A stretch of 61,725 bases of DNA, counting the filler, from Hausera hauseri (lineage: Eukaryota), in assembly GCA_046269625.1 (NCBI GenBank). It is 9 parts of 9 records of this genome, joined end to end, with 100 filler letters (N's around TTAATTAATTAA, not from the genome) between each part and the next. Parts side by side here need not be neighbours in the genome. Positions count along the whole stretch, not along the records: positions 14,000 to 20,325 come from JBJURY010112987.1; positions 20,426 to 25,956 come from JBJURY010235406.1; 7 more parts are not named here. One strand, 5' to 3'. The translations under genes were made by a program, and so were the position numbers. This document shows positions 1-41,716 of this stretch, one piece after another (positions within the stretch are counted from its first letter, which is position 1; every line of letters begins with the position of its first letter). The notes under the pieces are model-generated. The model had not been told where the DNA came from, made no database searches, and saw nothing but the letters and a program-made list of their open reading frames with translations.

Positions 1-1324
1 TAATTCATCTTCAGATCATTGTCATTGCTCACGAGACAAGTGCATTGGTGCTCCAATTTCATCCTCGGCATATCCACCAGCCCGCTAGGACTGACAGTTC
101 AATGAACGAACGAACCAACAAACCAATCAACCAACTAATTAACGAACTAACTAATTAACTAACTAAATTATTCCTCACGTCTTGTATCCAAATTTTGATC
201 ATGTCCTCCTACTACACAACAACTCAGGATGAACAAAACAAATACATTTGGAAAACCGACACAACAAACAGAACATGATACAACAGATACCAAACGAGCA
301 GAACGACAAAACAGCTAGAATAACGCGCTCATCGAAGGACTGACCACCTTGTAATCTACATCATTTAATCGTTACATGCCGCAAATGTCTAACAGCTGCA
401 AATGTCGTAACAGCTGCAAATGTCGTATGACTGTAGGCATTTCAGCATCAACTTTGCCTACTTAATTTTTTATAGTTAGCATTTTCACAGCTTTGCTTTC
501 AGTTATGCAGTAATGTTTCTAGAATACGGTTTCTAAATGTGTCTTGGAATTAACGAGTCTGTTTATCTCAGGTATTTAATTATTATTAAAGTGGATTATC
601 GTACGACATCAAACAACTTCCATTAATGTTCCTCTTTCCTTAGTTTGGTTTGGTTATTGATCTCCTCATCGTCGAGCGTCAGCCTTTGTGATGAGCCCTG
701 AGCAGGGCCGTAGTCCTAAAAAGGACTACAGGAGTAGTTTCGCTGAGCATTCCTTCTGTCCCAGTGGAGTATAGCAGGGTGGACCAAGGTCTTCCAGGCT
801 TGAGTGCTATGCTTGGCGTCCTGTGAGTGATCCACTCCTCAACATGGGGACTGTGGGCGATCCTTCTAATGTTGGCCAGAATTGCTTCTGTTTCCAGGAC
901 GGACCACGCGGAGGTGTTAGAAGGTCTTGGCCAGTATGTTGGTTCCTGGCCCTGACGAGATTGCGAAGCGATCTCAGTTCTCACCGTCCCTACACATGGT
1001 AAAAGGAAAAGCTAGTTGAAGTAGGTCTTGCACAAGTCTGTGCATGAGGCCATAGTGAAGACAGTCGCCTTGTTCACACAGCGTACGACGGTAAAACCCG
1101 GTTTGCGTTGTGCAACCGCTTAATTGCGACAGGAGCCCCATTGTTAACGCTATGGGCAGCGCAAGTAGAGATTAAAAGAGCAGTCGAACTGGCTATATAT
1201 ATATATATTCTCTATAGTGACACGGTTGCTTGTGGTAATGTGTCGAATCTTATACCTCAGTATTCTTCTTTAACAGAACATTAAAAAATAAAAATAGCAC
1301 CACGCGCTGCACAACCACTCTTAC

Positions 1325-4300
1325 CTGTGGAGGAGCCCGTGTCACGTGATATTATTGTAATGGGAGACTTGTTAATAACAGTAAATTCGAAGGTAGTTGA
1401 AAACATTTCAACAGAAGATTCTTTTATTATTTGAAATTGGTCATTTAGTGAGTAAGAAACATTTTCACCTGGTCCATTTGTTACAAACTCTGTTACATCC
1501 TGTTCACTATGAAAACTGACAGGTGTTACAGAGTCTCTTACATCCTGTTCACTATGAAAACTGACAGGTGTTACAAAGTCTGTTACATCCTCTTCACTAT
1601 GAAAACTGACAGGTGTTACAAAGTCTGTTACATCCTGTTCACTATGAAAACTGACAGGTGTTACAGAGTCTGCTGCAATTGGAACTTGAGAGCCCAAATC
1701 TGTGGTTGCAGTCTTCAAAGGTTCTTGGGTGGTAGAATTTCCGATCGTTGGTGAGATATTTGTAATGTGAATCGTACCAGCTGAGATCAGTTCATCTTTA
1801 GCTGGATTTTCGTTTGAAGCGCTGAGATTAAATTTGTTAGGATAAATGGTAGTGACAGTTTGTAAAGGAACGGATACATTATTAGTGTCTATTCTATCTG
1901 TTGTTGAAACTTCATAAACAACAGGAGATCCTAGTGTTGAAACGTCAGAAACAACAGAAGATTCTAGTGTGGAAACTTCAGAAACAATAGAAGATTCTAG
2001 TGTTGTTTCTCCTGTTGAATCTAACATTTTCACGGTGGAAATATTCGAGCCAGATGCAGCTTCAGTTACTAGTTTCCTAGTTTCCGATATTGTTTCTGGA
2101 GGTTCTGGTGAAGTTTCGGATATTACAGTCGAAAGTGTCATTGTAGTTGTCTGTCGACTAGAAACAGAACCGTCATTTGTAAATAGCTTTGCTGTCTCGG
2201 GCGAATGGCTGACGGTCGTAATTGTCGTTTCTGGGGTTTCAGGTGAAGCTTCAAACGTTTCAGTCGAAGGTCCCATTGTAGTCAACTGTTGACTAGAAAC
2301 TGAACCGTCTTGTGTAGACAGCTTTGCTGTCTGGGAGAAATTGCTGTCTGGATGTTCACGTGAGGTTTCAAATATTATCAAAGGTGTTATTTTTGTCAGC
2401 TGTTTACTAGAAGGTGAAATGTCTTCCGTAGACGAAAACAGATCTTCTGTCTGGGGGAAATCGCTGGCTGACGTAACTGTGGTTTCTAGATTCTCAGACA
2501 ATGTACGTTCAGATACAGACATTTCTGTTTGAAGATTTTCAATTAAAGATTGTCTGGACGTTGGATCATCTGTAAATAATGTACTTGAAAAATACTTATT
2601 CTCAGTAAATGTAGCTGGAATATACTCAGTATATTTAATTGCTATTGATTCTGAACTGTCTGAAGGTGCTGTTGTTGATGAAAATTCTAGTGTAGCCTGG
2701 AAATCTGAAATGGAATCTGTATATTCATTGACGGGAACTGTTCTCGTCACGCTGAAACGTTCTGTCGAAGTGTCATCGATATTAATAATAGCTGTGGACT
2801 TTTCTGGAAACGTATTATCTATCGAAGTATTAGATTGACTCGTGCTGCCAGTGGATAATTCTGCTTCAGTGGAAAGCTTAGGTGTTGATAATTCAGTTTG
2901 TGTAAACGGTTCTGTCTCTGATGTAAATTGCTGCGACGACGACACAGATACCAGTGAAATAGACTCTCTTGGAACAGATGAATTAATTGTAGATACCAGT
3001 AACGAACTAATCGTAGACGATTCAGTTTTAATAGATATGTCCACAGTGCTTAACAAATCTAAAGCAGACTCGCGTGTAGACAATTCAACATTATTAGACA
3101 ATTCAGTTGTAGAAGGCATTTGTGACATATTCGCACTTGTAAATGATTCCATTTCAGTATATATTTCGAATGTAGAAGGTAAATGTGAAGAATTTCTGCT
3201 TGCAGATGTTTCAATTGATGGATGTAAGTTTGAATCTGATGTTATTGTGGAAGGTTGTATTTCAGTCGACAAATCGACCGTATGGTTAAAACTAATAGGC
3301 ATATTTGTAGACAATTTTTTTTCTGCAGATAACCCGGTTGATGATGGTAAATCTTGAACGGGGATTCTGGTAGATGTTTCCTTTACAGCAGATGATTTTG
3401 TAGTCTGTAAATCTGAAGCATGCGTGAAGTTAAATAACTCTTTTTCGGTTGTTACTTCCCCTGCATGTGGTATTTCTGAGACTTGAATATTGGTAGGTGA
3501 TTCCATATCAGCCGAATGTCTATGTGTTGACAGTAACTCTGGACTAGATGTGTTGGTAGTAGATTCTACTTCGTTCGTCATCTTGGTTGAAGATGGTAGA
3601 TCAGAAATATGAATATTGGTAGACGACTCCTTCTCAGTTGATAGTTCTGCAGTAAGAGAGACATGAGAAACGGAGAAACTGGTAGAAGTTCCCGTATTCA
3701 TTGAAAACTGACCTGTTGATGATAAATCAGAAAAATGAATAATACTCAGATCCTTTTCGGTCGATAATTCAATTGGTGATGTTAAATCTGAGATTTCAAT
3801 ATTGGCATATGAATCTCTGTCAGTTGAAAACTGAGCTGTCGATAGTAAATCTGAAATGGGCATATCAGTAGTAGACTCCGCGTATATCTTGGTTATAGTT
3901 GCTAGGTCGTCAGCAGACGGTAAATCTGAATCCGTTTTTCTGGTTGATATTTCGGAAGTAGATGATAAATCTGAACGAACATATTCGGTTGATAGTTCGA
4001 CAATATGTGGTGAGTCTGAAACAACTTTTTCGGTTGATAGTTCGGAAGTAGGTGACATATCTAACAGAACATTTTCGGTTGACAGTTCGACAGTAGATGG
4101 TGAGATTGAAACAACTTTTTCTGTTGATTGTCCATAAATAGATGATACATCTGAACGAACATTTTCAGTTGATAGTTCAACTGTAGATGGTGAGTTTGGA
4201 ATAGCTTTTTCGGATGATAGTTCGACAATAGGTGGTGAGTTTGAATCAACTTTTACTTTTTCGGTTGATATTTCGGAAGTAGATGATATATCTGACAGAA

Positions 4301-6600
4301 CTTCTTCGGTTGATAGCTCTTCAGTAAGTGGTGAGTCTGAAACAGCATTTTCGGTTGATAGGTCAGAAGTAGATAATATATCTAAAAGAACATTTTCGGT
4401 TGATAGTTCAACTGCAGATGGTGAGTTTGGAACAGCTTTTTCGGTTGATAGTTCGACAGTAGGCGATGAATCTGAAATAACTTTTTTGGTTGATAGTTCC
4501 GATGTAGGTGATATGTCTGAAAGATCTTTTTCGGTTGAAATATCGAAAGCAGATGTTGAGTCTGAAACAACTTTTTCTGTCGGTTGTCCGGAAATAGATG
4601 ATAAATCTGAACGAACATTTTCGGTTGATAGATCAACAATAGGTGGTGAGTCTGAAACAACTTTTTCGGTTGATAGCTCGGTAGAAGATGGTGAGTCTGA
4701 AACGGCATTTTCGGTTGATAGTTCAGAAGTAGACAATATATCAGAAATAACATTTTTGGTCGATAGTTCGACTGTAGATGGTGAGTTTGGAACAGCTTTT
4801 TCGGTTGATAGTTCGGCAGTATGTGGTGAATCTGAAATAACTTTTTCGGTTGATGGTTCGGATGTAGATGGTATGTCTGAAAGAAGTTTTTCGGTTGAAA
4901 TATCGAAAGCAGATGTTGAGTCCGAAACAAGTTTTTCTGTTAATTGTCCGGAAGCAGATGATAAATCTGAAAGAGAATTTTCGGTTGATAGTTCGAGAGT
5001 GGATGATGAGTCTGAAACAACTTTTTCGGTTGATAGTTCAGAAGTAGATGATATATCTGAAAGGACATTTTCGGTTGATAGCTCGGCAGTAAATTGTGAG
5101 TTTGAAACAGCTTTATCGGTTGGTAGTCCTGAAGTAGATAATATATCTGAAAGAAAATTGTCGGTTGACCGTTCGACAGTAGATGGTGAGTTTGAAACAG
5201 CTTTTTCGGTTGATAGTTCGGAAGTAGATAATATATCTGAAAGAACACTTTCGGTTGATAGTTCGACAGTGGATGGTGAATCTGAAATAACTTCTTCGGT
5301 TGATTGTTCTGAAGTAGATGATATATCTGAAAGAACGTTTTGGGTTGATAGTTTTACAGTCAATGGTGAATCTGAAACAACTTCTTCGGTTGATTGTTCT
5401 GAAGTAGATGATATATCTGAAAGAACGTTTTGGGTTGATAGTACTACAGTAGATGGTGAATCTGAAACAACTTCTTCGGTTGATTGTTCTGAAGTAGATG
5501 ATATATCTGAAAAAACGTTTTGGGTTGATAGTTCTATAGTAGATGGTGAATCTGAAACATTTTTTTCTACTAATAGTTCAGCAGTAGTTGGAGACCCTGA
5601 AATAAATTTTTCGGTTGATAGTTCAACAACAGATGGTAAGCCTGTAACAGATTTTTCGGTTGATAGTTCCGAAGTAGATGAAACAACTTTATCTGTTGAT
5701 AGTTCTCCTGTAGATGTTGAGTATGATACAAAAATACTTGCTGATGAATCTTTTCCAGCTGCTAATTGGCTCGTGTATGGTAATGATAAATCAGGCATAT
5801 TCGTTATCACTTGCCGTTCAGTTGATAACTCAGCTGTAGATGATACCTCTGAAATAAGAATGCTGGTGACCCTCTCCTTACTGGTTGATAACATGGCAGT
5901 AGATGTCAACTCCAAACTATGTGTGCCCGTAGAAGGCTGCTCTTCGAGTGATAACTCGAATGTAGATATTAACTCTGAAGAAGGCATACTGGTAGGCGCA
6001 CCCTTCTTGGTTGATAATTCAGCTACTGATGAAGTAAGAATACCTATAGTCGATTCCTTTTCGGATGTAGATAGTGATTCGGTAGAAAGTATGACTGCTG
6101 TCGATTCCTGTACGGTTGATTCTTCGGTTGTAGACGATAACATTAAATCAGTCATAGAGATCGACGATTCCACTTTTATGGATGAGTATGGCAAATCTGT
6201 ATGAGGAACACTTGTTGATAATTCTTTTTCAGTTGAGTTCTCTATTATAGATGACAATTCCAAATCATTCATATTAGTGGACGCTTCCCCTTCTGATGAT
6301 AGCTTACCTGTTGACGCTAAATCTGTTTCTGAGGCAACCGTAAACGATTCTTCTCGGGTGAATAAAGTGGATGAAGAAGGTGTCTCATCAGTCAGATTAT
6401 TTGTAGAAGATTCATTTGCAGTCAAAGGCTCTGTAAGTATTTTAGTACCTGGCACAGGTGTGATTGGAGAACTATCCTTTTCACTCGACAACTGGACTGT
6501 CGATTGTAAATCTGATATGGAAATAATGGTAGATAATTCCTCCGCAGTTGATAAGTACGCTGTAGATAGTAAATTGTAAATAGGCGTACTTACAGAAAAT
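1325..6600 (-). CDS. Large internal exon of a Ser/Thr/Glu-rich mucin-like (PTS-type) protein
   Basis: 1736-aa ORF dominated by S/T/E, with the frame open up to ~6617. Splice donor ACAG|GTAAGA on the minus strand at 1325/1324. No ATG or signal peptide, so probably an internal exon. Confidence 0.75.
1488..1670 (-). repeat. 45-bp coding tandem repeat x4 (VTPVSFHSEQDVTDF)
   Basis: Four near-identical copies of ...ACTATGAAAACTGACAGGTGTTACA... Confidence 0.9.
3940..5700 (-). repeat. 45-bp / 90-bp higher-order coding minisatellite (STSELSTEKVVSDSP-type 15-aa units)
   Basis: TCGGTTGATAGTTC recurs about every 45 nt, with near-perfect 90-bp units at ~5280-5550. Confidence 0.9.
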
Positions 6601-6859
6601 TCTGTTTCAGATAAACGTTAAATAAAACTTTATTCTCAATTTGAAATATCCAAAGTGAGTTATTTCCATGAGAGATGGTAACTTGTCACGATGAAAAACT
6701 CATGGTGCTACTTCGCAATAGAAGTTTTATACAGCAGGGATATGTTAGTGAAATGAATGACAGCCTCAAAGATTGTATTCAGTAAATTGTCGTAGAGGCA
6801 GGAATGAGATGGAAGCCAAAAATGAGATATAAAGATAAGTGTATTATCAATGGAGAATT

Positions 6860-13800: not shown

Positions 13801-14299
13801 TCAGGTTTGAGCCTGTCAAGAGTCAAGAGACATCTGGGTTCTGCACCACCGTGAAGCACAGAAGTATTAATTACCACTGTGAAACCTAAAGTAGTTACCN
13901 NNNNNNNNNNNNNNNNNNNNNNNNNNNNNNNNNNNNNNNNNNNTTAATTAATTAANNNNNNNNNNNNNNNNNNNNNNNNNNNNNNNNNNNNNNNNNNNNA
14001 TTGTTGAGGAAAACGGATAGGGATAAGGGATGTGGCGCAGCGGGAGCGGGCACGCTCGGTTCCCCAACCAGAGAATCTCTTGCACTGAGACCAAATTGAT
14101 AGAAAGTAATGTAATTTCTTGAATAGGTATGAATCATAGACGAATTGTAAGAAGTATAAAAATCATTTAGGAATGTGAATAATAGAATGTCGGTAGTGAA
14201 ATCATCATGATTACCTTTTAATAATGGAAATAATGACAATGATCTCGCCAACTTCTGAATAACTGTGATTGATGATTGATTGGAACCAAATGGAGAGAT

Positions 14300-16250
14300 G
14301 AATTGATTTATTCCAATAGACCCAAGAACCTGGGAAGGTGGTGATTGAATCTGAGTTGAAGAATTCGATGAATTGTCTGTATGGGTCAATGCAGCAGCAG
14401 AAGTGAGAATAGTATTTACCCCATGAATAATAGTTGTCTGGGATTTGGAAAGTTTTAGAAGCATTGGTCGAGAAATTTTGATGAAACATTTCAAAGGAGA
14501 TTGCATAATTCCAAAGGAATACAGATATTGCCTTTGACAAAGCAGATTAAATGACTTTTGCATCCAAGGATAAAGAGTGTCGAACAGTCGTCCATAACTC
14601 ATGGACCACTGATACGAATTTTTCGACAATCTCGATGGCCATCGTTTCATGACCATTCCTTTTATTAATGCCAAACACATTACGAATTCGCTTTCGGGCA
14701 CCATTGATACATCGGGTACAGTAAACAGATTATTCAAACGTTCTCCAACGGAACTTAATAAATGTAAATAAATGTTCAATTGTGATTCACTTTTGCATGC
14801 TGCTACAAAATGTGAGAACGTTTCCTCATCAAGCAAACTACATGGATGTTTAATAAACACGATACGTTGTGTCCATATAATGGCTTTCATAACAGTAATA
14901 TCTTGATTCCATTTCATTATACAGGCATTGAGGATATGCTGACGACAATAATTGGCGGAATTGTGTTTGAAAAAAATGCAAAACACAACAAAATCAGACA
15001 ATTCTGGATTGTCACTGTCATAAAAAAATTGAAGATATCCGAGAGTCCATTGATTAAGCAACCAGACTAGACCACCGACCAGCTGAACACTTTCATAGCA
15101 TTGTACATAGAATCCCAGACCACGTAACGTAAAGTAAAACAGTCTTATAATATCATCACAATAGTTAAGATCAACTTCAAATGAATAAAGAAATTTATCA
15201 AAGTTATTCTCCATTTCATTAGCACAATTAATCAACAAATTTTGGTAATGCTTAACGATATGATCAGAATCATCAATATTATTCGACTCCATCATAATTT
15301 TAAGTTGTTCACGGCTATGTTCATAAATAAGTCGAAGATAAAAAAAATTCACATGTTTGGCGTAAATCAGTCGAATTTGCGTTATTGGATCATTCGTTAT
15401 GTTGAATATAACATGGCCGACAATTGACGCAATCCAATGTAGATCTTCAAGGAGCTTCTCCAGAAGTAACAATCTTGAATGGAGATGATGATTCAGGTGT
15501 CTTAGCGAATCGGGAGGACATTGTAAGCCAGAAAGTCCACAGGCATACAAGACCCCTTCAAATGCCTTTTCATCGTCCTCCTCCAAATTGAAATCCAAAT
15601 CGTCGTCGTCCGATTCGACAATAACAATACCGCATTCAGCAGTTACATTTCGAAATCCATCCTGTGATGCCAAATGGGAACTTACAAAATGCTGAAGCAG
15701 TTTCCGATGGCATTGCTGTGAAATACGACTTAGTTCATGAAAAATCATTGTTTCCCATTCGGATCTGGACATAAAATTGAGATCGATTCCCGATGACAAT
15801 TTAATGGAATATTGCAGAATTTCTTCATAATTCATAAACGACACAAATCTTGAAAGAACTCTTTCGGTAGTTTCCATGTAAATTGTATTAGATTTCGAAA
15901 TGTTTTCAGAGGCTGCTCCATCAATACACTTCACACAGAAAGAGGCATAGAATTTAATAAACCGTCCCATTTTATCAACAACAAAACAGGCATATTCATT
16001 AGGAACATTTCGGGAGAAATTTTTAATTGCACTCAGCTCAATTTCCTCGTTATTCACCTCAATTGTGAGACCATCAATCCGTATACTACTATTTAAATGT
16101 TCCTGCAGTTGGTAAATAATATCAGCCAGTAGAGGCAATTTGTAGTCATAGAGATCCTTGGTTATCGTCCACTGATAATTTGACGAATTACCGTTCCTGT
16201 CAAAATAATTGCACATAATGTCAATAAATCCAAAGCTGAAATCAATCTGA
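14300..16250 (-). CDS. XPO4: Exportin-4-like segment (C-terminal half of the 1444-aa ORF)
   Basis: HFVSSHLASQDGFRNVTA...EEDDEKAFEGVLYACG...LLEDLHWIASIVGHVI resembles exportin-4 (HLAAPDGTRNLTA...EDDRDQFSDQLASVG...LYEDIHWLILVTGY). Boundaries are approximate. Confidence 0.7.
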
Positions 16251-16259
16251 GAAAATTGG

Positions 16260-19200
16260 TAGCAATTTCTGATATGTTCCGAATCCAAAAATAGACTATC
16301 ACTAAACTTAATATCTTTAAACTGGGCACTTAAATCTAAAGCAATATCGTCGAGCTTCCGTTGGGTTCGAATAATTATGCTCCGATGAGGAAGATCGGTT
16401 ATGAACTTGGGAAATACTTTACCAAGGTAAAAAATGATGTAGAAATTCGGTTCCCATCTGTCTTCAAACATGATCTTTTTCAAAAGCTCAGACATATGGT
16501 GATGAGCTTCACTCAGTTTGACGAAATCGATAACGAAATTCGTGTAGTCATTGATTAGTTCTTTGCAAACATCGACACCCTGTTCCCAATCTTCCTTTTC
16601 AAAGTGCTTTAAACTATCTTCAAGTAACTTAGCCTTCAGCTGATAAGGAGCATAACCCATTTCCGTTTCGTTTTTCGCTTTGGTATGTATAAGCATCAAT
16701 TTGAACAGATACCGTCCAATAATATCGGATCGGCCCATTTCTTTGTAAAATTTTCGTAAATTATTAATAACAATCATTCCATTAATGGGAGAATTATTAC
16801 TAAGATGAAGTGAACATTCCTCAATATTATTCATCTGAATGATAATATTTTTCACCAACTGAGCATCTTTCTGAAACTGATTATTGCTATTCAAAACTTG
16901 TTTCAAAGCCCTTGTCATTTCCTCACAATAACTTGAATCAGCCTTTTCCATAGCCTGATCAATTTGCGTAATTAATTCAGTTCGTTTATTGTTCGGATCA
17001 AGATGAACAATGTCAAACATACATTCGACTGCCAAAGGTCGAATACGATAGTTTTGGATCGTTGTCATTTTTGCAAAGATTGTGAAAAATGTTTGAGAAA
17101 AGTTATTCTTCAGAACATCGAGATCGTGCCATATTTCTGTAATACGCAATGCACCGTGCAGTCGAACATCTCCATTGTATCGCCGTGCATTTTCCATGAT
17201 TCGAAGTGCTGCGTAACCAGGTAATGAATCTAATTTTAGCCACGGTTGAATTATGATCGTGCAGATTGTTTCAACTTCTTTAATGACTAATTTTATCTGT
17301 AAATTTTCTGATGGATGGCAACAACACAAACGTGCTTGGTTGGCCTTTTTAAGATGAATCAAATTCCGTAAGTAGTATGGTTTAATTATAACAGCATGTA
17401 GTTGAGACAACGTGTTCAGAAACTGATTACTCTGTGAAAACAACATCTCAATCCATGGTTGATTCATATACTTAGAAAACGGAGAAAGAACAGAAACCAT
17501 ATACGATGACTGTCTCGTTAAACTATCGGCTAATGACGACATTTCCTCATCTTCGCAGGTTGAATCGGGAAAGACCGGTCGTACCTGTACGTTATTAATG
17601 AGACAAAATAATTCGAACACCAAATCATAATTATTCGTCATTCGTTGAGCCTTACAAAAAAGACAACTGTCCGTTTGGTCCTCGATGACCTTCTCCCATA
17701 ATTTTGCATTCATATGGGATAGACCGGTCAATACGACCGTGATTAGAATCATTAATGGCTTATGTAAAAGTTTCGAAGATGCCTCGTCTCTTGATAGAAA
17801 ATCGAAAATATTGCAAACAAACTCGATACAACTCCGCAACAGATTTTGTTCAATTAGCAATTCATAAATCATTTCATCAGCGTATTCTCGACTGGACGTT
17901 AGCCATGACCTTTCATGGATCTGAATAAACTCTAGCATTTTTTCACAGATGTTATCCATTAAATGATCTAAATCCAGATCACGGCCTTGAAAAATCTCCA
18001 AATCTGGGTTATTTCGATTTAATTGATACCGAAACAAATCGATAATATTTTTTGTTGTTTCTTCCAAAATAATTCGCCGACAAACACGATCAAGAAAAAT
18101 ACTCGATTTCATAGTGTCCATTATCAAATCAGATTTTGCCAATGGGTTCAAATCACTCGATGCTTTCAATAGATTGTTCACCAAACTAGCCATTCCATCT
18201 ATTTGACAAACTGGCAACAAAGCATGAATGATTGGACCAGCCTTTTTAAGAACCATTCGCCGTAGAATTGCATTTCCTTTTGTCAACTCGTTTGAACTGG
18301 CTGTGTTCTAATTTCTCTAAATAATTGTCCGTGAAAATGTTGAAATCATTTGATTTGTCAAACCCAGCTGTAATCTGTTGCTCAGAATTTTGAAATGATT
18401 TGACGACAATTTTTATGAACCAATCTGACGCATGCATGTAGTTCAGATCCTTTTTCGTATTTCGTTCGGTAAGCTCTTTGAGAATTTGTTCATGAACATT
18501 GAAATGCATCGTTTCATAAATGAAACGATTCAATTGTGCCTCGTAGTCTGGTAAATTCTTTACGGCATTGAACATTTCTTCCAGTAATGAAAAAATATTT
18601 TTCCCCAAATACGATGTTTTCGTAAGCCTTTGCAATAATTCCAAACTGGCCTCCAATATTTTTAATGCAAACTTTTCAACTTGTTAACATCGATATTTTT
18701 GATGATATTTCCTTTTTTTCCAAATATTGAATCAATTTCCTGTCAACCCCATTGCAACAAATTCCAGCCAGTAATTCATCAAACGTATATTCATTCGAAC
18801 ATAACAGAGTCTGGATATAAAGAACATTCCTGTATTTAGATGCTTTCGGAGGCCTTCTACCAACGGTATCATTCGTTTCCACGCTCCCTTCATTCGTTTG
18901 AGCAAGATAGTCACCCGTTTTGATTTTTGCTTCATCCGTCTTAAAAACTGTCAATTCATATGACTTTTCGAGATCCGTATTGCTGACGATCACATTCGAC
19001 TAGTTTTTGGGAAACAATTTCAAATATGCAACACCGAAATTCTGACTTTTGTTGTTAAGAGATTTGTGATGAATCAGAAATCGAAGGTGTGTCGATGAGG
19101 GAAACTCTTCCAGTTGGTTATACAATGAAATGCAAAATGTCTCACTCCATTTTGGTTTGGAATTGTGATAGTAGATTGTAGATTTGTATTCTTTGAATTC

Positions 19201-19751
19201 TCGCCAGTCATTTCGCGGCAGATGAACCACATTTCCATTTCTATCTCCGAGAGAAACTTCCACTTCACAGTTGGGATCACTTTTCTTTACTCCCCTATCA
19301 GTGTCTAAACGCACCTGAGTTACATATAAACAGTTGCGATTTGTTCGTATCGGTGGTGGATAGTAGGGATTTAGTCCCAAAATTACGATGTTACGATCAG
19401 TGATATCATCGGGTTTGATAACTTTAAGCTGGAAGTTTATAGAATTCTGACAATTGCCTCGGCTTGTTGAACGGTAGTTGGTAATTATATTATTTGTTAA
19501 TGTTTCAAGCGCTTCTTTCTTTGTGGTCATTTGAATTTCAATTGTTTTCTCACCCCTTGTGATTCATTAATGATACTTATTATTTCCGATACGGCAACAC
19601 CTTTTGGTCGTCGGTAATCAACCGAAACATCTTTGGCCTTTTCAACATCTATGGGTCTAATATGAATGAATTGAAATACGAAAAAAATTTTCTGCTTTTG
19701 AACGAAGGGAATATCTTTTGATACTGTCCTTAACAGGACTTTTGAATCCAT
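16260..19751 (-). CDS. DOCK-A/B family Rac GEF (DHR-1 C2 domain, ARM region, first part of DHR-2); intronless, interrupted by one stop and frameshifts
   Basis: DHR-1: EYKSTIYYHNSKPKWSETF...HLRFLIHHKS...NFGVAYLKL. DHR-2 lobe A: FYKEMGRSDIIGRYLFKL...WEQGVDVCKEL...EPNFYIIFYLGKVFPKFI. Spread over ORFs 19527-19751, 19000-19530, 18676-18993, 18246-18656 and 13952-18286. Confidence 0.85.
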
Positions 19752-20527
19752 TATTTCAAATTTGTATTTATATCAAATCCAATTTATCAATTTTTTAATT
19801 CATTTTACTACCATAGTAGTTATTATATTAGTCTATCGACCGACTGCGCATTACCTCGATTGAACTCGCTGACTCATAGATTTCTACTGCTGTTCATTTC
19901 CTTTCCCATCATGATTCATTGCGGCAAATTGATCAGGACAGATTGTATTTGATTTTTTTAGTGGGTTACATACATTAATTGGAGTGGATTTTGATGGATG
20001 ATTTTTGTGATAAACAATTTTCTTTGGTACATAACTGTAGAATTGTTTTTCTTTATATATTGGCAATTGATTGGGTAGTTTTGATTTGCTTCACCTGGTC
20101 AAATTTGGGGTTAACTTTTTGATACTGTTATGCAAATTTATTGCAATGATTTTTTACAGATATAATTAACTGAATGACTTGATTTTGTTTAACAACAATT
20201 ATGTATGATTATATAAATCGCTATTAAATATTTCTAATTATCATTCTACATTTGATCGACGATCTGAATATCATGGGCATAAACAAGGTCAGGGTAATTT
20301 GCTGATGAAAAATTGACATTGCACGNNNNNNNNNNNNNNNNNNNNNNNNNNNNNNNNNNNNNNNNNNNNTTAATTAATTAANNNNNNNNNNNNNNNNNNN
20401 NNNNNNNNNNNNNNNNNNNNNNNNNAGCCTATTGCGTCAGAAGAAGTGGCGCCATTCGTCCTAGGCTGTCTTAACCGATTCATTTTTTCGTTAAGGTCTG
20501 TTGGTGAATTTTGATTGTCTTAATTGG

Positions 20528-21028
20528 TTACTGGGTTGTCTCCAAGTTATAGCTGTGGTAGGGTTTTATCCTAACAATGCGTGTATAGCTTCCGTCAGAG
20601 TAATACTTCAATTCTGTAGCTTCAGCCCGACATACTGGACACGTTGTTTTCCCGTTGTCGAGTGTCCATTTCTCTAGACAGTCTCCGCAATATTTGTGAC
20701 GGCAGTTATTGTTATCTAGTATTACATATCCTTGTCTCAAATTTGCATCACATACGGGACATCCACTATCTTCTTTATCCCAATCTTCTCTATCTAAATC
20801 GACCTGAATAATCAGTTTGATGGGTTCAAATACAAGGCCATCTCCGTCTTGGTATAAGTATCCGTGAATTACCTTCTGTTTAAGGTTTATTGAACTTTTA
20901 CGCGGGTCACAATATACCTGAATCAGGGTCCAGTCCTCTATGAAATCCTTATCTAGATCAGGAATCCTTCCTTCTATTTTATATTTCTGATATTGTTTCT
21001 TCAGCAATATTCGGATTTGCTTGTCCAC
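20528..21028 (-). CDS. C3HC4 RING-finger protein (putative E3 ligase), retroelement-associated
   Basis: CPVC-x14-CRHKYCGDC-x12-CPVC. Confidence 0.85.
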   Translation of the reverse strand: MDKQIRILLKKQYQKYKIEGRIPDLDKDFIEDWTLIQVYCDPRKSSINLKQKVIHGYLYQDGDGLVFEPIKLIIQVDLDREDWDKEDSGCPVCDANLRQGYVILDNNNCRHKYCGDCLEKWTLDNGKTTCPVCRAEATELKYYSDGSYTRIVRIKPYHSYNLETTQ

Positions 21029-21168
21029 GGGAACTATTATCTTCCCTGTCCTTTTTGATCGAAAAATTGACGTAAGGTAGGTTCCAAGTTTAGTATTTTC
21101 CTATACATAGGTGTTTTCAAATACCTCTCTAGCCGGGGCAAGTTTGATGAAAAACATTGCTTTCTTTA

Positions 21169-21447
21169 TTATCTTTTACTGTAATATTCGGTAGTTATCA
21201 ACATTCTGGGAAAATCTTGGACTGTTTTATAGTGTACGTCTTCTTTATTTCTTTTTCCTATTAGGGCATTGATTTCCGTTATTATGGGATTCCTAATTCC
21301 CTTTTTTAACGGTTCTATATTCTGAGAAGTACTTGGTTGATTTTGTTGGTTTCCTGCCTTTTTTCCTTCATCTGTCTTATGCTTTTTGAATAAATAATTG
21401 TAGATGGATAATGTTTTCCTAGGTTGTGGTTCCTCTTCCAATTTCAT
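21169..21447 (-). CDS. Hypothetical basic protein, possibly a fragment of a longer disrupted ORF
   Basis: Co-oriented and tightly packed between the exonuclease and RING ORFs, with the same A-rich coding bias. Confidence 0.35.
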   Translation of the reverse strand: MKLEEEPQPRKTLSIYNYLFKKHKTDEGKKAGNQQNQPSTSQNIEPLKKGIRNPIITEINALIGKRNKEDVHYKTVQDFPRMLITTEYYSKR

Positions 21448-21480
21448 CTTTTTAATTATTGTTTCTGGCCTTGTTTTTTT

Positions 21481-22362
21481 TCATTGTTCTTCTGGAGACC
21501 TTGATGTACCTTGCAACGTCTTCTTTTCCTCTCCGATTGTCCGTAATCCCGTTTTGCCTTCTGGTTTTGGTTCTGGTACTAAGATTTTTATACTATGATT
21601 GTCTGCTGATTGAACGGTTTGAATTGGGGAATAGGGTTTTATGTTTCTTCTATATTTACCATCTATTCGTTCAGGGTTTATGGAGCTACGTAAATTGTAT
21701 ACGGGATTTTTAGGGGTCCATTCATGTTCCCATTTTAACGTTATATAAATTTCTTGTAAATATTGAGATCGTTGGCTAGCCGTCAGAAGTCTTGGAATTT
21801 TACTTGGATTGTCGTTCATTGCTTCGACGGTTATTTTAATGAAGGCTTCTGGCGCGGTTGGTCGGTTTTTTCCTTGCACGGTTTTCTTCATTCGTTCTTG
21901 GACTACTGGATGAGTGGCTATTTCTCTAAGTCCGGCAATATTTGCATCGGATATCCCTAATAGCCCGATTTTTCTTTTGACGTTGTATCCTGCTATCATA
22001 CATCCGTAAAGGCGATGGTCTAGTTCCGAACGGACTTGTAGAATATCTTTTCCATTTATCAATTGATCTTTTCTTATACCGGTCACTTCCGCATGTGATT
22101 CCTGGACATGTTTCCGAGGGTTTATGATGGTTGAGTATAATTCAGTCCCATCTCTTTCTCGAATAGATACCTCGATCGGTATTCCATATCCATCGTCTCC
22201 TCTACCATAGTTTGTAGCCAGGATCCTTATGTTCCGACCGTCTTGGACCAACCTATACGATTGCAGATGTTCATCTTTTTCTGCCTCTGTTGGAGTTTGT
22301 TCGAATTGTAGAACTGGCAAGCCTAAGTTGCAGCTCTCTTTATAGGTCACTTCGAACATCAA
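21481..22362 (-). CDS. DEDDh (REX4/ISG20-like) exonuclease-fold protein with catalytic residues apparently lost
   Basis: EVSIRERDGTELYSTIINP...HAEVTGIRKDQLINGKDILQVRSEL...GCMIAGYNV matches the REX4/ISG20 core (RVSIVN..G..VYD.YVKP...TAVSGI.PE.L..G......V...L.G.ILVGH). Confidence 0.7.
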   Translation of the reverse strand: MMFEVTYKESCNLGLPVLQFEQTPTEAEKDEHLQSYRLVQDGRNIRILATNYGRGDDGYGIPIEVSIRERDGTELYSTIINPRKHVQESHAEVTGIRKDQLINGKDILQVRSELDHRLYGCMIAGYNVKRKIGLLGISDANIAGLREIATHPVVQERMKKTVQGKNRPTAPEAFIKITVEAMNDNPSKIPRLLTASQRSQYLQEIYITLKWEHEWTPKNPVYNLRSSINPERIDGKYRRNIKPYSPIQTVQSADNHSIKILVPEPKPEGKTGLRTIGEEKKTLQGTSRSPEEQ

Positions 22363-22427
22363 TTTAACAGGTTAGGCGGCTACTCGAAATTCTAATCCAT
22401 AGTCAATAGTTTCTAAGCCTTTTCCGC

Positions 22428-22808
22428 TTATTTTAAACGTGCTAAATCGGTATTGGCACCCTTCATTACAGTCCCATTGTTGGTTTTTATTTTGTAGTAA
22501 ACTTCACCATCTGCTAGATGGCTAAATATGTCTTCTATTTGGGTGACTTTACTCTGAATCATTTCTTTAAGTTCATATGGTCTGGCTTGATTGTTCTCAT
22601 GCATCGCATGTAAGAAAACTGTGCGGTTCTCTACGGTGATGCCTTTTAAGTCGTTGGGTATTTTATTTACTTTTCGGTATTTAACATGTGTTTCGGTCCT
22701 TAACGCGTCGTTTATTCTTCTGTATATGTCCTTTGATTTGGGGATATGAATGGTTCTGTATCTCTGTAGGAATTCGTCGATTCTAGGTCGACTGCTCGTA
22801 CTTACCAT
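22428..22808 (-). CDS. Hypothetical protein preceded by a strong splice acceptor
   Basis: 126-aa ORF. The minus strand reads TTGTTTTGTATTTTCTTTCAG|A ATG. Confidence 0.5.
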   Translation of the reverse strand: MVSTSSRPRIDEFLQRYRTIHIPKSKDIYRRINDALRTETHVKYRKVNKIPNDLKGITVENRTVFLHAMHENNQARPYELKEMIQSKVTQIEDIFSHLADGEVYYKIKTNNGTVMKGANTDLARLK

Positions 22809-22910
22809 TCTGAAAGAAAATACAAAACAAGGGTCAATCCTGAAACAAAGTATTGTTCGAAACTTGAACCAATTCTTTGTTTGATGGTGAAATAACCCTA
22901 TCTGTAGTTG

Positions 22911-23403
22911 TCAGGCTATTCCATCATTGATTCTGTTCTGTGGTATCATCACTCTTAGTTCCCTCTCGGTGATTTTATGACACTTAATACAACAGTTTTT
23001 AGTAATCAATCGACAAAACGCAATTATCATTATGAGAGCAAATACTGATGTTCCAATAATCGATGTTAATGACAACACTGTCCATTTAGTTAAATCTTCT
23101 ATTTTGGCGGTAGTCGTAATCTCATCCTCTGTTTTATCATCTGTCAGTGGTTTCGTTACAACAATCTCGTTCAAGGTTCGTATTGTGAACACTCTACCTT
23201 GTTTGTTCTCTGCACCCATTTGTATTATATAATTTGTTCTGGGTTTCAATCCGATACATTTGATTCGGTAACTGCCTTTTGGCAGTGTTACCTTCTGATT
23301 ATTGTGTAATGTTCGGCAGCTTATTTCTACTTCGTATTTGAGTGTTTCCTCCAAAATGAACGTTATTTCGCGTTGTTGTGCCTGATATTTTACAGGGATT
23401 ATT
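22911..23403 (-). CDS. Fibronectin type III-like domain + transmembrane helix + Cys-rich tail (5'-truncated type I membrane protein)
   Basis: YEVEISC...GLKPRTNYIIQMGAEN resembles the FN3 L.P.T.Y...V.A.N signature. Hydrophobic WTVLSLTSIIGTSVFALIMIIAFC is followed by RLITKNCCIKC. Confidence 0.65.
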
Positions 23404-25956
23404 CGCTTGTCAAAATTTTATTCATTTCGTCGAATGCTTTTTGTTCCACTTCTGTCCATCTCCACTTAGTTCCTTTTTTGAGTAAGCGATATAGTGGTGC
23501 GTTAATTTTTGAATTATCTGGTACGTAAGTGGCGTAATATCTACATAGGCCTAATCAACTCCTTTTGATTCTGTGGTTCCATACAATCGGATTTTTTATT
23601 TAGCAGAGATTTATCCGGTTTTGATCCTCCTTCTCCGACTATGTTTCCAAGGTACGATACTGCGTTCTGTGCCAATTTACATTTCTTTGGATTTAGTTTC
23701 AGTCCTGCTTGTTCTAATCTCATGAGTGTATTCTCAATATCTTTTAAGTGCTCTTCTTCTGTTTTTGATGCTATCATCACGTCGTCTAGGTATGCGAATG
23801 CATGATCAAGTACCATGAGCATCTTATTCCTCATTGTAGTAAAAATAGCTGGTCCTGTGGTGATGCCGAAAGGCAAAACATAAAATTCGTATACGCCATC
23901 GTGTGTTTTGAATGCCGTCTTATATCGATTTTCTTCTTCGATTTCCACTTGCCAGTATCCCGATTGTAAGTCGAGAGTGGTAAACCATTTTGCCCCTGAA
24001 AGTCTATCTAATGCCTCCTTTACTAATGATAGTGGAAACGAGTCTTTCATCATCGGCGTGTTCAATACCCGATAATCTATACAAAATTAATGTTTCGTGG
24101 TTCCTTTCTTTTTAACCATCAGTATGGGTGAGTACTATGATCGGTAACTTGGCCGAATTTTGTCGGCCTTTAACATTTGCTCTACTTCTTTAGTTATCTC
24201 CGGTCTCAATGAGTGAGGAGGCGGATACCACTTGGGTATTTTCTGTTCTTCTAGGTCGATTTCGTCATTTAAGCCCGGTTTCTTCCTCAATGGAATTGTT
24301 AATCTTAGAGCCTTTGCTCTACCTATGTCTTCTTCATTTTGCGCTATTATCGAGCGGAATTTACACAATAGTTCATAGAATTTGCAATACACTTTCGGAG
24401 AGAATTTGGTTTCAATATGAGGCGACAATTCAGCACACTTGTATGGTTCTGCTCTATTGTTTCTGCCGATACTCTGCAAGTGTGACCCAGAGTAGTGTTG
24501 GCGTGCAATCTTACGGGAATCGGTGCATTGTTCACTAATCTGATGGGTATTCGTCCCGTCACTACTCTACATAAAATGTTGCTAAACATGAGGTTTGGAT
24601 CAATATTGTCTTGAGGCTCAAAGTTTACTGGTAGATCATCATCTTGTGCTAAAATTATTATCTCGGTTCTGGGCGGAATGTTTTCATCTACTGGGATCCA
24701 TACTTCACCTGATTTTCTTTCCTTTATTACCTTTATCCCTTTTATTGGTTATAGTTCACTTAATTTTCCATTATACACATCGATTGCCATACCTCGTATC
24801 TGTTTCAATATATCGCAACCTAGTACTACATCGTTTGTCAACTGATTTATTATTGCAAATTTGTGTTGAAGTGCTTGACCCTTCATATAAACAGTAGGAG
24901 TCCATTTAAATTTTGGCTTCGATACTTGTCCGAATGCTCCTACGCTCCCTGGGTCCGATGATGCGGGCTGACAGCTGGTCTCGCAACGTGGTTGGTATAG
25001 ATTCATATTCTATAAACGATTTTTCTGATCCGGTATCGATTAATGCATACACGTCCCAATCTTCTGTGTGTATTTTAGTGAAAGGTCTCCCTTCTGCTAC
25101 TGTTCCGTAGCAATTTGACACTATCTTTGACCGTTTTATAGTACAGACTCTATATCCATTTATCCTTATTTCTGGCGATAAAATGATATCTTGCCTTAAT
25201 TGTCTTAATTCTCCATTCGGATGCAAGTCGTTGTTTGTTATTTCAGTAACGCGGCTATCAATGAACGCTTCCTGGGGTAGTGAACTCGAGATCGAACACA
25301 TTTTTGGGTTTTCTCAAATTGCTGATTTTGATTCTATGTGACGCGGTATTCATTTTGAGTACAATATTCCGTGGTGGTTTTCTGTTGGTCTCTGGTTGAT
25401 CACATTCATTTTCCGGAGTACTGCATATTGTTTTGTCTTTTCATAAGGATCCTCATAATTAATAGGCTTTTGATAGATTTCTGACCTACATGATACGATT
25501 GATTTGTGGTCGCAATATTCATATATTGGTGCTGTTGGAGGCATGATTGGCAATAGCGCATTAATCACTGAGTACATCTTGTGCATCCTCATTATAGAAC
25601 TCGCTTCTCCTTCCTTAGGCTTGTCGTTGTCTGAATCATTCGTCCGTGTTATTGTCTTCCTGTTTTTGCGTTTATACAGAATCGAAGGCTTCCCTCGTCG
25701 TTTGCGATTATAATACCCGACGTGACGTTCTACGTCATTTTCCATCGATTTTCTTCGTATGCTTTAAGCATCTTCCCAAAGGATGTGATGATCGCGGTCA
25801 AAATTTTCCAAGAGAATCCTGTCAATGTGAATATTTCATATCCGTTTATAATGGCTTGGATTACTGCTTTAAATAGTTAGACTAAAAAGTAGATGGCTAA
25901 AAATCCAGATGCGGCTTGTCCAAAAATTAAAAATCTTCCCCACATTTTATACAGTA
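23404..25956 (-). mobile_element. Ty3/Gypsy-type retroelement copy 1: glycoprotein C-terminus - linker - aspartic protease - RT; breaks off before RNase H; frameshifted
   Basis: Protease ALIDTGSE (~25040). RT KDSFPL..VKEALDRLSGAKWFTTLDLQSGYWQV, LPFGI, YLDD, LKLNPKKC. The end of the contig encodes FLIFGQAASGFLAI, identical to copy 2. Confidence 0.9.
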
Positions 25957-26284: not shown

Positions 26285-26424
26285 TGTGTGCATCGTAAAA
26301 AATTATGTGTGATTTTATTTTTTTGTGTGCGCTCACACACTAATTATAACGTCCTTCAAAAAGAAGAAGTACTTCAAAGTATATAATTCAGTGTTTGTCA
26401 TTATTTTTTAATTTTTTCATCAAA

Positions 26425-27054
26425 ATGAACACGCAAGAGCTTACACAAATTTTGGTCAATGAAAGCACAAAATTAGATGCTGAACAGAGGCAGGGCAAAA
26501 GTGAACAGAAACAGTCAGATGTCAAACAGAAACCAGAAGCAGGAACAAGTTCTCAGCCAATGCTGCCTGTGGATATGGACGCATCAATTAATATCAACCA
26601 ACTGCAGCAGGATCTAGAATTAACCATTTATGACAATGAATTTTTGCCAGAAGAGGAACAGGTTGAGAATAAATCTGCTGCGCCAGTTGAAAAGAAACCA
26701 TCCGTGCCAATTAGACGATTCAAACAAGCAAATGGCGGATTGTACAATAAAGAAGTTCCAAAGAAAGCAGCAATCAAACGGCTAATTGAGCCTGCTATTA
26801 ATCAGGTCAGGATGACAAAACATCGTCAGGCTCAATTAGTCCAGGCACAGGAGGATTGTAACAATACGCAGGAGCGTATTGTCGCAACAAATGAACTGGT
26901 CGGCAAATGGAAGGGCCAGTGTGAACAACGCCGGCAAATTCGCCTCAAGTTGGGTGCAAATGAAAGGCTTGAGACAATGCAGTTAAATCCAACAAATAAT
27001 CCAAAGCTGCATACAAACCTTAATAAAAAGTTTGAAATCCAAAACAGGGAGTAG
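26425..27054 (+). CDS. Hypothetical Q/K/E-rich coiled-coil protein
   Basis: ~210-aa ORF from ATG 26425 with no recognisable domain. Confidence 0.45.
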   Translation: MNTQELTQILVNESTKLDAEQRQGKSEQKQSDVKQKPEAGTSSQPMLPVDMDASININQLQQDLELTIYDNEFLPEEEQVENKSAAPVEKKPSVPIRRFKQANGGLYNKEVPKKAAIKRLIEPAINQVRMTKHRQAQLVQAQEDCNNTQERIVATNELVGKWKGQCEQRRQIRLKLGANERLETMQLNPTNNPKLHTNLNKKFEIQNRE

Positions 27055-30194: not shown

Positions 30195-31780
30195 ATGTCA
30201 CAGACGTCATCTCAGTTAATGTCTCGTTCGGAACGAAATGAGCAAGTAGGATTTTTATTATTTATATTATTATTTTTATTGTTATTAAGGGATATCGTAA
30301 TAATTTCACTGTGTCGAATGCAGTTAATGGTCAATATGTGCGATTATTTTTGAATTGTAATGATGATCATGCCAGAGCCTTACAGTATCGCTTTCCAGAA
30401 CCAATAAATTATTTGATTGTGCCACCGGAAGGAGCAACATTTCGCCATTTCATGGCTGTGATGAAATTCGATGAAAATATTGATTTATGTAATTACATTG
30501 GTAATTTTATACGGCTTGTTTTATTGTATAAATTTTATATGAAGGTGGTGGAAGATACGTCTTCCTCTGGTTTCCACCATCTTCATTTTCTTTTTTATTT
30601 GCGCAACCCTATGCGGTTGCGTCGTTTTCGTGTTCTTTTTGGATTTAATTTTCTTATCCCGTTTAGGAGTGATATCTATGGGGTTTATAAATATCATAAT
30701 AAGGATATCACTCCTAATGTTTTTTCTATGCAAATCGGTAGTCCCCCTATAGATATTAACAAAGAAAACACCTCACGTAAGGCCCTATATCGTATGTTTG
30801 ACGATGCTCCCTCGGTCGGAGAAGCTATGTTTATAATGAAAGAAGGTGACCGAGCGGAGTACGTCACAAGGCATAAAATGTTACAATCATACGTTAACAG
30901 TAAATTTAAACCTTAAATTAATGTTAATGAGCAATATGTCTTCACTCTTTCACCTATCGATTTCCGCCTTGATAAAGGTGTTAATACCGCGTTACTATTT
31001 GGAAGTAGTAACATAGGGAAGACATGTTATGCCATGTCTCATGGGAAGAACCCATTAATTTTACATTCATTGCATGACACTCCTTCTGAGTGGTCATCTG
31101 AATATGATATAATTATTTTTGACGATGTCGGGTTTAGCGATGTCTGCCCGGACATTTTCTTAGCAATAGTGCAATGTAACCACGTACACGACAATAGGTC
31201 AATACGTGGGTTATATAAAAGTGTTGTGGTACCATCTTCGGTACGGGTTATTTTTACATATAATTCGCAGTCATCCTTTTGGCCTCGAAGGATAGACTTA
31301 TCCCAAAAGGAGGCGTGTATGAAAAGGTGTCTCCTGTACGATTTAGGAGATTTTATGCTCTACCGTACAGGGGAGAGTCGAGACCGCTTTATTCAAGAAA
31401 ATCGAGTTGATTTTCGTCGAATAGCTGATGAGTTTGTGGAGCCACCTATTATTCCTGTTGTCTTGCCTGTAAATGATTCTCTTCCATCTGGAATTCCTGT
31501 TGTTATACCACCACATGAATCTTTAACTGTTACTATTGATGATGATAGTGAAGGGGACTACCGAGATGATAGTTTATTTACTTCTCCTATTGATGTACAA
31601 AATGTAAGTAATTATCGCCCTGTTTATCACAGGGAAGTTTTATCGCCGTTTCACATGTGTAGTGAACGGTGTTATGTGCCACCGCATGTTGATTATCTTA
31701 ACACCGGTAGCAGTGCCGGTAGTGTAAATACTGCACCTGCGTATGTACGGTATCGCGATATCGATGTATGCTGCCGATAG
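30195..31780 (+). CDS. rep: CRESS-DNA-virus-like Rep (HUH endonuclease + SF3 helicase), spliced, with one in-frame TAA
   Basis: Exon 30195-30245 and intron 30246-30289. Motif I FTVSN, motif II HHLHFLF, motif III YKYHNKD. In-frame TAA at 30914-30916. Walker A GSSNIGKT, Walker B IIIFDD, motif C VIFTYN, Arg-finger-like ACMKRC. Confidence 0.85.
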
Positions 31781-41600: not shown

Positions 41601-41716
41601 TCTNNNNNNNNNNNNNNNNNNNNNNNNNNNNNNNNNNNNNNNNNNNNTTAATTAATTAANNNNNNNNNNNNNNNNNNNNNNNNNNNNNNNNNNNNNNNNN
41701 NNNAGCCAACAGCGAC

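Follow-up and report, generated by a model that had tools for sequence, protein, structure and literature searches.

A decayed env-bearing Ty3/gypsy-like element in Hausera hauseri and an adjoining two-gene cassette that is probably an LTR-element 3' accessory region

Do the genes that lie beyond the reverse transcriptase (RT) on one contig of Hausera hauseri belong to the retroelement, or did they come to lie beside it in another way? Enveloped gypsy elements are common in invertebrates and, to our knowledge, little is known of how they withstand RNA silencing by the host or move from cell to cell. The window, i.e., the whole concatenated stretch of DNA that was analysed, is 61,725 nucleotides long. 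The entire finding is located on one 5,531-nt contig of this window (positions 20426–25956) with all features on the minus strand, and a second copy of the element (copy 2) is present on the contig at 41704–50189.

Architecture of the env-bearing element

The following features were delineated, in the direction of transcription and with copy 2 last:

25703–25956, minus strand: 3' end of env, Monjiviricetes-type fusion glycoprotein, membrane-anchor region; broken and cut by the contig end (PF24664; 73% nucleotide identity to copy 2)
24906–25702, minus strand: env tail/linker and aspartic protease; broken (RVP, DTG motif; collinear with copy 2)
23555–24905, minus strand: protease–RT spacer and RT; broken (RVT_1; Ty3 RT 4ol8)
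23402–23554, minus strand: RT connection region, stopping just short of where copy 2 starts RNase H (comparison with copy 2)
23401–23403: junction with about 2 nt of overlap between its sides; missing here are RNase H, integrase, and the beginning of the membrane ORF (homology to copy 2 ends at 23402)
22911–23402, minus strand: 5'-truncated ORF with one weak FN3-like domain, a stalk, one transmembrane (TM) helix (about 23060–23004), and a short tail (fn3, hydropathy)
22809–22830, minus strand: predicted splice-acceptor-like pyrimidine tract and CAG, one base before the ATG at 22808 (AG position)
20528–22808, minus strand: one broken accessory gene of about 750 aa (tblastn with P0002, alignments, folds, N-domain profile, RING Pfam)
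43148–49990, plus strand: copy 2, with decayed ORF pieces, env, protease, RT, and the RNase H start; truncated at both ends, without cassette or LTR (Pfam, alignment)

Judged by its sequence, the contig is a decayed copy of a Ty3/gypsy-like element in which an env of the Monjiviricetes fusion type precedes protease and RT. This agrees with the initial annotation of a Gypsy-type enveloped element, in which env tail, protease, and RT are followed by the cassette on the same strand. With X placed at stops, the env tail matched Pfam PF24664 with an E value of 2.7e-14 (model positions 538–619), and matches to this family were above the cutoff in both env copies. The protease has a DTG motif at 25046–25020 and matched Pfam RVP below the cutoff (E = 0.005). 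The RT matched RVT_1 (Pfam, E = 6e-31), contains YLDD inside 23795–23775, and is of the Ty3/gypsy type, with Ty3 RT (4ol8, E = 6e-40) as its best PDB match and gypsy-type Pol as its top protein-database matches. Further PDB matches were the polyprotein chain 8r0s (8e-31), which we take to be of caulimovirus type, foamy (3e-19), and HIV (2e-11). In a quick tree of 62 rows, including 60 of the 120 database hits, both copies formed one long branch (SH-aLRT 99) with P0020 as nearest sequence, a placement that carries a long-branch warning.

Copy 2 is about 70% identical to the contig across the region from env tail to RT and continues into RNase H. Env lies upstream of protease and RT, in this order, in both copies, which is a feature of GAG-ENV-POL errantiviruses. 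For gag, the broken A-rich ORF pieces of copy 2 (43148–45400) gave no Pfam match. Integrase is absent from both contigs, and neither contains an LTR, as both end or break before reaching one. Chuvirus glycoproteins are presumably gB-like, which would equate the PF24664 env with the gB type of the GAG-ENV-POL errantiviruses. Sacco et al. reportedly described nematode elements of this GAG-ENV-POL, HSV/gB-type env kind in 2022.

The two genes of the cassette

The cassette holds two genes, the membrane ORF and the gene of about 750 aa, and not the five that had been annotated. The four ORFs previously listed separately as 'orphan', 'exonuclease', 'small', and 'RING' are pieces of a single gene that has suffered two frame changes and three stops, because an intact relative, P0002 (870 aa, one intact ORF), spans all of them; its residues 58–820 align to 22781–20540 (tblastn, E = 1e-149). 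From structure models and alignments, this gene is predicted to encode a cupin/AlkB-like barrel, an ISG20-like DEDDh domain that lacks its catalytic residues, a disordered linker, an unknown domain, and an intact RING. The annotated RING (20761–20621) was confirmed, with a zf-RING_2 match of E = 3e-8, Pfam scores above the cutoff in both the window gene and P0002, and all eight zinc ligands of the C3HC4 set in RING spacing.

Of the annotated exonuclease, the fold was recovered through relatives and the catalytic residues were not. The ORF alone had no Pfam match and none among the 781 candidates of a word-index protein search, and it was matched by Atlas RNase_T clusters (0.92–0.93). ISG20 was the top fold match for P0002 (E = 2.6e-8) and for L001, one of nine distant relatives described below (Z 18.1, rmsd 2.0, 158 aligned), and an ISG20/REX4-like DEDDh fold is thus predicted for these two models. 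The D-E-D-H-D catalytic set is incomplete: the motif I acids (motif I region at 22227–22204) are absent from the window gene, P0002, and P0003, and the motif III H and D from the window gene and P0002. Distant relatives retain motif I DxE and motif III H..D. As aligned, the DEDDh catalytic residues are lost in three independent sequences. P0002, P0003, and P0005 are encoded on contigs of 16.2, 12.4, and 30 kb, respectively.

The N-domain of the L001 model adopts a predicted double-stranded beta-helix fold, with matches to ALKBH6 (Z 10.5, rmsd 3.5, 132 aligned), Ofd2 (9.5), and ALKBH7 (9.3) and with cupins tying with the AlkB proteins within 1 Z (9.1–9.9). A profile ties the window N-domain to the L001 type (19.4 bits versus at most 5.0 for 100 shuffles); the same domain is of low confidence in the P0002 model (pLDDT about 45–65). 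On the evidence of alignments only, an H-x-x-D-like stretch reminiscent of the HxD...H metal triad is present in most distant relatives and unseen at that place in the window family. The AG of the predicted splice acceptor ends 0–3 nt ahead of the ATG in the window and in eight of nine related loci, a count from non-independent loci without shuffle control, and the protein of about 750 aa was likely expressed from a spliced subgenomic RNA.

For the membrane ORF, annotated as FN3-TM, hydropathy supports a single TM helix (2.42), while the FN3 signal is weak (Pfam fn3 E = 0.04; FN3 chains in PDB E = 0.14–0.15). Longer fused forms of this ORF were found in none of 302 candidates.

The junction and the origin of the cassette

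At the junction, the RT connection region meets the start-less FN3-like ORF. Identity to copy 2 is 14–17 per 20 bases up to 23402 and drops to 4–6 per 20 beyond, in line with the deletion-like breakpoint that had been annotated at about 23403. A splice junction was ruled out, as the corresponding position of copy 2 lacks a GT. The junction sits exactly at the RNase H start of copy 2, and the missing segment is what a pol–accessory–LTR order predicts, which counts for an internal deletion. We therefore favour, as the probable best explanation overall, a decayed env–pol element with an internal deletion onto its own 3' accessory region. One such deletion likely took out RNase H and integrase together with the beginning of the following gene and would have brought RT against this region, which would have held two genes, encoding a single-pass FN3-like membrane protein and the protein of about 750 aa.

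Both sides of the junction have the same strand and composition. As annotated, cassette and env–RT have a common A-rich bias, with coding-strand A of 0.40 and AT skew of 0.285 in the cassette and 0.38 and 0.24, respectively, in env–RT, above the skew of four host ORFs in the window (-0.04 to 0.14). Another non-host-looking ORF (26350–27054) is similarly skewed, so the bias marks mobile DNA and not this element alone.

Among the sequencing runs listed, one (public run X1) contains the cassette and no RNA run does. In X1 the cassette is not single-copy, an outcome that would have counted against the initial annotation, but multicopy and diverged: 17 of the 40 variant sites shown fall in the cassette, each in 12–70 different contigs (read depth was left out as a copy-number measure). 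A diverged 682-nt contig of this run matches the cassette side as far as 23403, beyond which its remaining 222 letters do not align; as it passes 23403 with other sequence, the membrane gene appears to be longer elsewhere. None of eight contig pieces among the matches listed (of about 13,760) in X1 bridges 23403, which, together with the short-contig assembly of highly repeated sequence and the abrupt joining of copy 2 to host DNA at both ends, would fit an assembly chimera of two high-copy repeats at 23402. We nevertheless consider a chimera improbable, because the overlap of about 2 nt is presumably too short for a k-mer misjoin and the absence of bridging contigs is uninformative where contigs are unlisted or filtered.

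Distant relatives of the larger gene were recovered from two metagenomes as nine loci (L001, L002, L005, and L009 among them) on contigs of 1.1–5.7 kb, all without RING. They share 23–28% identity in the nuclease domain, and their N-domain homology exceeds that of shuffles. P0008, which has an unrelated biotin carboxylase piece, and the repetitive P0012 were set aside as relatives, and a metagenome scan with the RING alignment yielded none among 308 stretches. In six of the nine loci, the gene is followed by a hairpin, a C-run/GGAGA(A)A tract, and TGT, which from their resemblance to gypsy elements we take to be a PPT-like motif and an LTR-like start; of the remaining loci, two stop inside the ORF or immediately behind it, and the third about 300 nt beyond it. 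The post-TGT sequences of L001 and L002 are related (81% over 53 nt), as is more to be expected of an LTR than of random flanks; paired LTRs were not seen at the distant loci. In L005, the gene lies downstream of a 504-aa ORF with signal and TM segments. The neighbours of this ORF that bear a name in the Atlas are FN3 proteins (0.91), with a recognition value under the Atlas threshold, and the ORF has no Pfam FN3 and no PDB sequence match. No homology between it and the window membrane protein was detected (3.0 bits versus a shuffled maximum of 4.5; BLASTP E = 0.64).

Because six of the distant genes precede PPT/LTR-like motifs and one of the nine follows a membrane ORF, the cassette probably represents, on these sequence grounds, accessory genes at the 3' end of an LTR element. 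A position between pol and a 3' LTR is thereby upheld in part, for the LTR-like end; no sequence obtained runs from integrase, or from pol, into the cassette in an independent copy. It is very improbable that the cassette represents a pair of host genes, or part of an unrelated DNA virus, hit by an insertion of the retroelement. Hosts and large viruses commonly encode ISG20/REX4-like, FN3, and RING domains, but the cassette is multicopy, diverged, intronless, and of mobile-type bias, and its relatives have an LTR-like end; moreover, no relative was detected in the scanned prokaryote genomes or in viral contigs searched via the exonuclease ORF, the RING alignment, the distant-family alignment, the 3' motif, and the L005 membrane protein.

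We regard it as fairly likely that the cassette is native to this env–pol family. Alternatively, it could stem from another LTR family, as its 3' end, or from a non-autonomous derivative, and have become joined to this env–pol through template switching, a nested insertion, or a deletion that linked adjacent elements. The lack of observed integrase–cassette continuity is consistent with this alternative, as are the absence of RT, integrase, and env from all nine related loci, the A-rich bias common to other mobile-looking ORFs, and the different membrane-type extension after integrase in P0020, the nearest long Pol by score among unnamed matches. It is nonetheless unlikely, as it needs two events where one deletion suffices, strand and order are those expected of a single element, and L009 compared with L002 has an internal deletion of the same kind as proposed at 23402.

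Putative role and relation to known elements

If native, the two extra genes, which are likely part of the element, may help it to resist host defences. The two disarmed enzyme domains could bind nucleic acids as one module and thereby guide the RING E3 to host proteins of RNA surveillance or silencing that sit on element RNA or cDNA, and the membrane protein could be a receptor-like or adhesion accessory beside Env. This counter-defence mechanism in particular is tentative, with the balance somewhat against it. Rather doubtful is the wider proposal of a widespread, undescribed complex invertebrate retrovirus-like lineage of about 14–16 kb with gag-env-pol, an FN3 membrane gene, and a spliced barrel–DEDDh gene, one branch of which would have fused dead RNA-processing enzymes, as a binding module, to a RING E3, yielding a self-contained anti-restriction ligase with a role like that of lentiviral accessory proteins. 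The conserved 3' accessory gene family, with its catalytically intact and its disarmed RING-fused forms, provides named candidates for element-encoded counter-defence and makes the interval from pol to the 3' LTR worth re-reading in elements already catalogued.

Chary & Hayashi (PMC13524379) already report an env-before-pol order from nematodes, flatworms, and bryozoans; their survey, built on gag, pol, and env, comprises GAG-ENV-POL Ty3/gypsy 'errantiviruses' with HSV/gB-type env. In the rows covered here (Bryozoa, Platyhelminthes, and 11 of about 36 Nematoda rows) these reach about 11–13 kb LTR to LTR, so an enveloped family of more than 10 kb, such as had been proposed, is not new. For some planarian elements of this kind, the search for an LTR within 3 kb gave none. 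The element described here shares with them env before protease–RT, an invertebrate host, and multiple copies, and is set apart, by description, by its probable 3' accessory genes; that paper reports none, and the words RING, exonuclease, fibronectin, and accessory do not occur in its main text. There are precedents for cargo of the nuclease, the AlkB, and the ubiquitin-related kind, and their combination was not found in the literature searched; rows of PMC13524379 beyond those covered may bear on this.

Complex invertebrate elements are not novel either, since gypsy elements with ubiquitin-related cargo are known: the giant planarian Burro/GYPSM1 (PMC6431247) has ubiquitination-linked cargo and an env between gag and pol that matches mononegavirus fusion proteins. 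Its cargo (MATH, BIR, BCL2, SUMO-like, ankyrin) is part of, or precedes, a polyprotein of about 4,900 aa, whereas ours follows pol and is of another kind. Juno and Vesta, LTR elements of bdelloid rotifers (PMC5408684), carry a DEDD-fold exonuclease gene after pol, and their sister families have small TM ORFs, as here. However, their ORF3 is an RNase D-like DEDDy protein with intact catalytic residues that replaces env, in contrast to the disarmed ISG20-like DEDDh domain described here, which shares one protein with barrel and RING and occurs alongside env. Orchid gypsy elements with an AlkB m6A demethylase ORF (PMC9289625) likewise have a 2OG-oxygenase-type fold as an extra ORF; theirs is active and stand-alone, while ours is a predicted, nuclease-fused fold without a recognisable metal triad in the window family. 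Anakin (bioRxiv 2020.02.15.950899) is also an LTR element with a chuvirus-type glycoprotein, but belongs to BEL/Pao, whereas the RT described here matches Ty3 best.

Gene content of the fourth contig

The window consists of nine short contigs with N-linkers between them, and the element under study is the entire fourth contig (20426–25956). It comprises a retroelement half and a cassette:

25956–23402, minus strand: retroelement half, with fusion glycoprotein end, protease motif, RT and RT connection region; stops and frame changes throughout
22911–23402, minus strand: membrane gene, start missing, FN3 signal weak (E 0.04 and E 0.14), one TM helix
20528–22808, minus strand: large accessory gene

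The glycoprotein end is of the Monjiviricetes type (PF24664, E 2.7e-14), and the RT (E 6e-31) has Ty3 RT as its top PDB match. Copy 2, a second copy of the retroelement (41704–50189, plus strand), shares ~70% identity with the fourth contig across the env-end-to-RT stretch, has a longer env (E 1.7e-14) and runs on past the RT into RNase H. Its upstream ORF pieces had no family match, and gag in this copy is thus only putative. Both copies formed their own long branch in a quick tree of 60 of the 120 database matches. A gypsy Pol on a 14.3-kb contig (P0020), 46% identical to the RT region of the window element, carries a signal-like, Cys-rich, single-TM extension after the integrase, which is another post-integrase membrane ORF.

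Relatives of the cassette were sought among 1.84 billion representatives by a profile-free search, which gave 13 matches. The top match, P0002, is one 870-aa ORF whose residues 58–820 align to 22781–20540 (E 1e-149), the window side being interrupted by two frame changes and three stops. A further relative, P0003, is partial. The initial annotation had listed separate orphan, exonuclease, small and RING ORFs, a division that does not hold as the alignment of the single P0002 ORF is collinear with all four, and the cassette is two genes. The composition bias proposed to be common to the retroelement half and the cassette was confirmed, being alike on either side of the junction and unlike that of four host ORFs. 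Scans of viral contigs, metagenomes and prokaryote genomes gave no match to the close family of the accessory gene, and an origin of the cassette from host or DNA-virus genes is highly improbable. The cassette is multicopy, not single-copy: it holds 17 of the 40 variant sites listed in the public sequencing run X1 (1,100 more exist), each in 12–70 contigs.

The junction at 23402

Identity to copy 2 is 14–17 of 20 bases before 23402 and 4–6 of 20 beyond, and RNase H begins at this point in copy 2. A splice junction was rejected, GT being absent there. A 682-nt contig of run X1, ~80% alike, matches the cassette as far as 23403, and its 222 further letters do not align; in that copy, as read from the contig, the membrane gene does not adjoin the RT. 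The breakpoint claimed at ~23403 agrees with the sharp drop in identity. No contig bridges 23402/23403 among the 8 X1 pieces listed, of ~13,760, such gaps being uninformative, and X1 may itself be the run from which the window derives. The join is therefore either an assembly artefact or private to the fourth-contig copy, where a deletion or recombination would have made it.

The intact element would probably have the order gag-env-pro-pol, membrane gene, spliced accessory gene and 3' LTR, with the segment from RNase H to the membrane-gene start deleted in the window copy. A join between two LTR families has a modest chance, and an assembly chimera a smaller one still.

The accessory gene and its distant relatives

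The P0002 structure model (mean pLDDT 50.5) is confident solely in the middle domain and the RING, and ISG20 is its top structural match (E 2.6e-8). For a distant relative from metagenome locus L001, the first 380 residues were modelled (pLDDT 82.9), giving a second domain that matches ISG20 (Z 18.1) and a first domain that forms a double-stranded beta-helix, for which ALKBH6 (Z 10.5), Ofd2 (9.5) and cupins (9.1–9.9) are tied; viral structure library matches likewise include cupin proteins and plant-virus replicases. The window 'orphan' stretch scored 19.4 bits with a profile of the relatives' N-domains (100 shuffles, ≤5.0). The motif I acidic residues are missing in the window, P0002 and P0003 and kept in the distant relatives, a distribution that places their loss before the decay of the window copy. 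All eight RING ligands (8/8) are present in the window gene and P0002. The accessory protein might use two disarmed enzyme folds for nucleic-acid binding, with its RING ubiquitinating host defence proteins, a tentative model somewhat likelier to be wrong than right. The accessory-gene ATG (22808–22800, minus strand) overlaps a donor-like GTAAGT immediately 3' of an acceptor-like AG, and alternative splicing is possible there.

The distant family was found at nine loci out of 168 stretches from two metagenomes, with pol or env reached in none and RING present in none. Six of the nine have a hairpin, a C-run/GGAGA(A)A tract and TGT downstream of the gene, the remaining three stopping too soon or by ~300 nt past it, and the sequences 3' of TGT in L001 and L002 are related. 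This motif resembles gypsy ends and may be read as a PPT and LTR start; no paired LTR was seen. AG ends 0–3 nt 5' of the ATG in the window and 8/9 loci (related loci, counted without a control), which suggests a spliced subgenomic RNA.

Upstream of the nuclease gene, L005 encodes a signal+TM ORF of 504 aa and two coiled-coil ORFs. The Atlas protein-cluster neighbours of the former are FN3 proteins, a weak recognition, and sequence comparison detected no homology to the window membrane ORF. Small coiled-coil ORFs are duplicated between membrane and nuclease genes (L005 1773–2207 and 2669–3061; L006 588–1169). Just 5' of the nuclease gene, L004 (1–290), L007 and L008 (both 1–115) have acidic, Tyr-containing ORF tails, with -SEYV or -SEV at the terminus, that look like cytoplasmic tails of membrane proteins. 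L009 (1071–1073) has a ~1.7-kb internal deletion relative to L002, joining the nuclease gene straight to the 3' motif.

Precedents and genomic surroundings

The element had been proposed as an undescribed enveloped family of >10 kb. As described by Chary and Hayashi (PMC13524379), GAG-ENV-POL elements with gB-type env are known from Nematoda, Bryozoa and Platyhelminthes and share env before pol with the window element; the supplement rows listed give ~11–13 kb LTR to LTR. Env before pol in elements of >10 kb is already described. Searches of the open-access literature turned up no enveloped gypsy element described as having a barrel-DEDDh(-RING) gene or an FN3-like membrane gene at its 3' end. 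Every single theme has precedent: ubiquitin in Burro (PMC6431247; env within the polyprotein, ubiquitin-related cargo), nuclease in elements with a DEDD nuclease after pol (PMC5408684), barrel in elements with AlkB cargo (PMC9289625), and env type in an LTR element carrying a chuvirus glycoprotein (bioRxiv 2020.02.15.950899).

Neighbouring contigs hold a DOCK-C2 domain, an Mtr4 domain and, read from sequence, a repetitive neuropeptide-precursor-like ORF, and the host is on this basis judged to be an animal. The latter ORF (41704–43147, plus strand) has dozens of S-x-F-Y-K-R repeats, and its stop codon adjoins copy 2 with no LTR between. The DOCK-like gene (14000–19563, minus strand) has an uninterrupted ORF of 1,436 codons, the DOCK-C2 match lying in an upstream piece. 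Two in-frame ORFs with one stop between (30242–31780, plus strand), in which visual inspection shows HUH-like and Walker A/B-like motifs, had no Pfam and no relevant PDB match; we take them to resemble Rep of an endogenous CRESS-DNA virus. An A-rich ORF (26350–27054, plus strand) had no family match. LINE-like fragments with a DUF6451 match lie at 54670–55435 (plus strand), and a mucin-like, Ser/Thr/Glu-rich ORF of 1,778 codons with ~30-aa repeats at 1281–6617 (minus strand).
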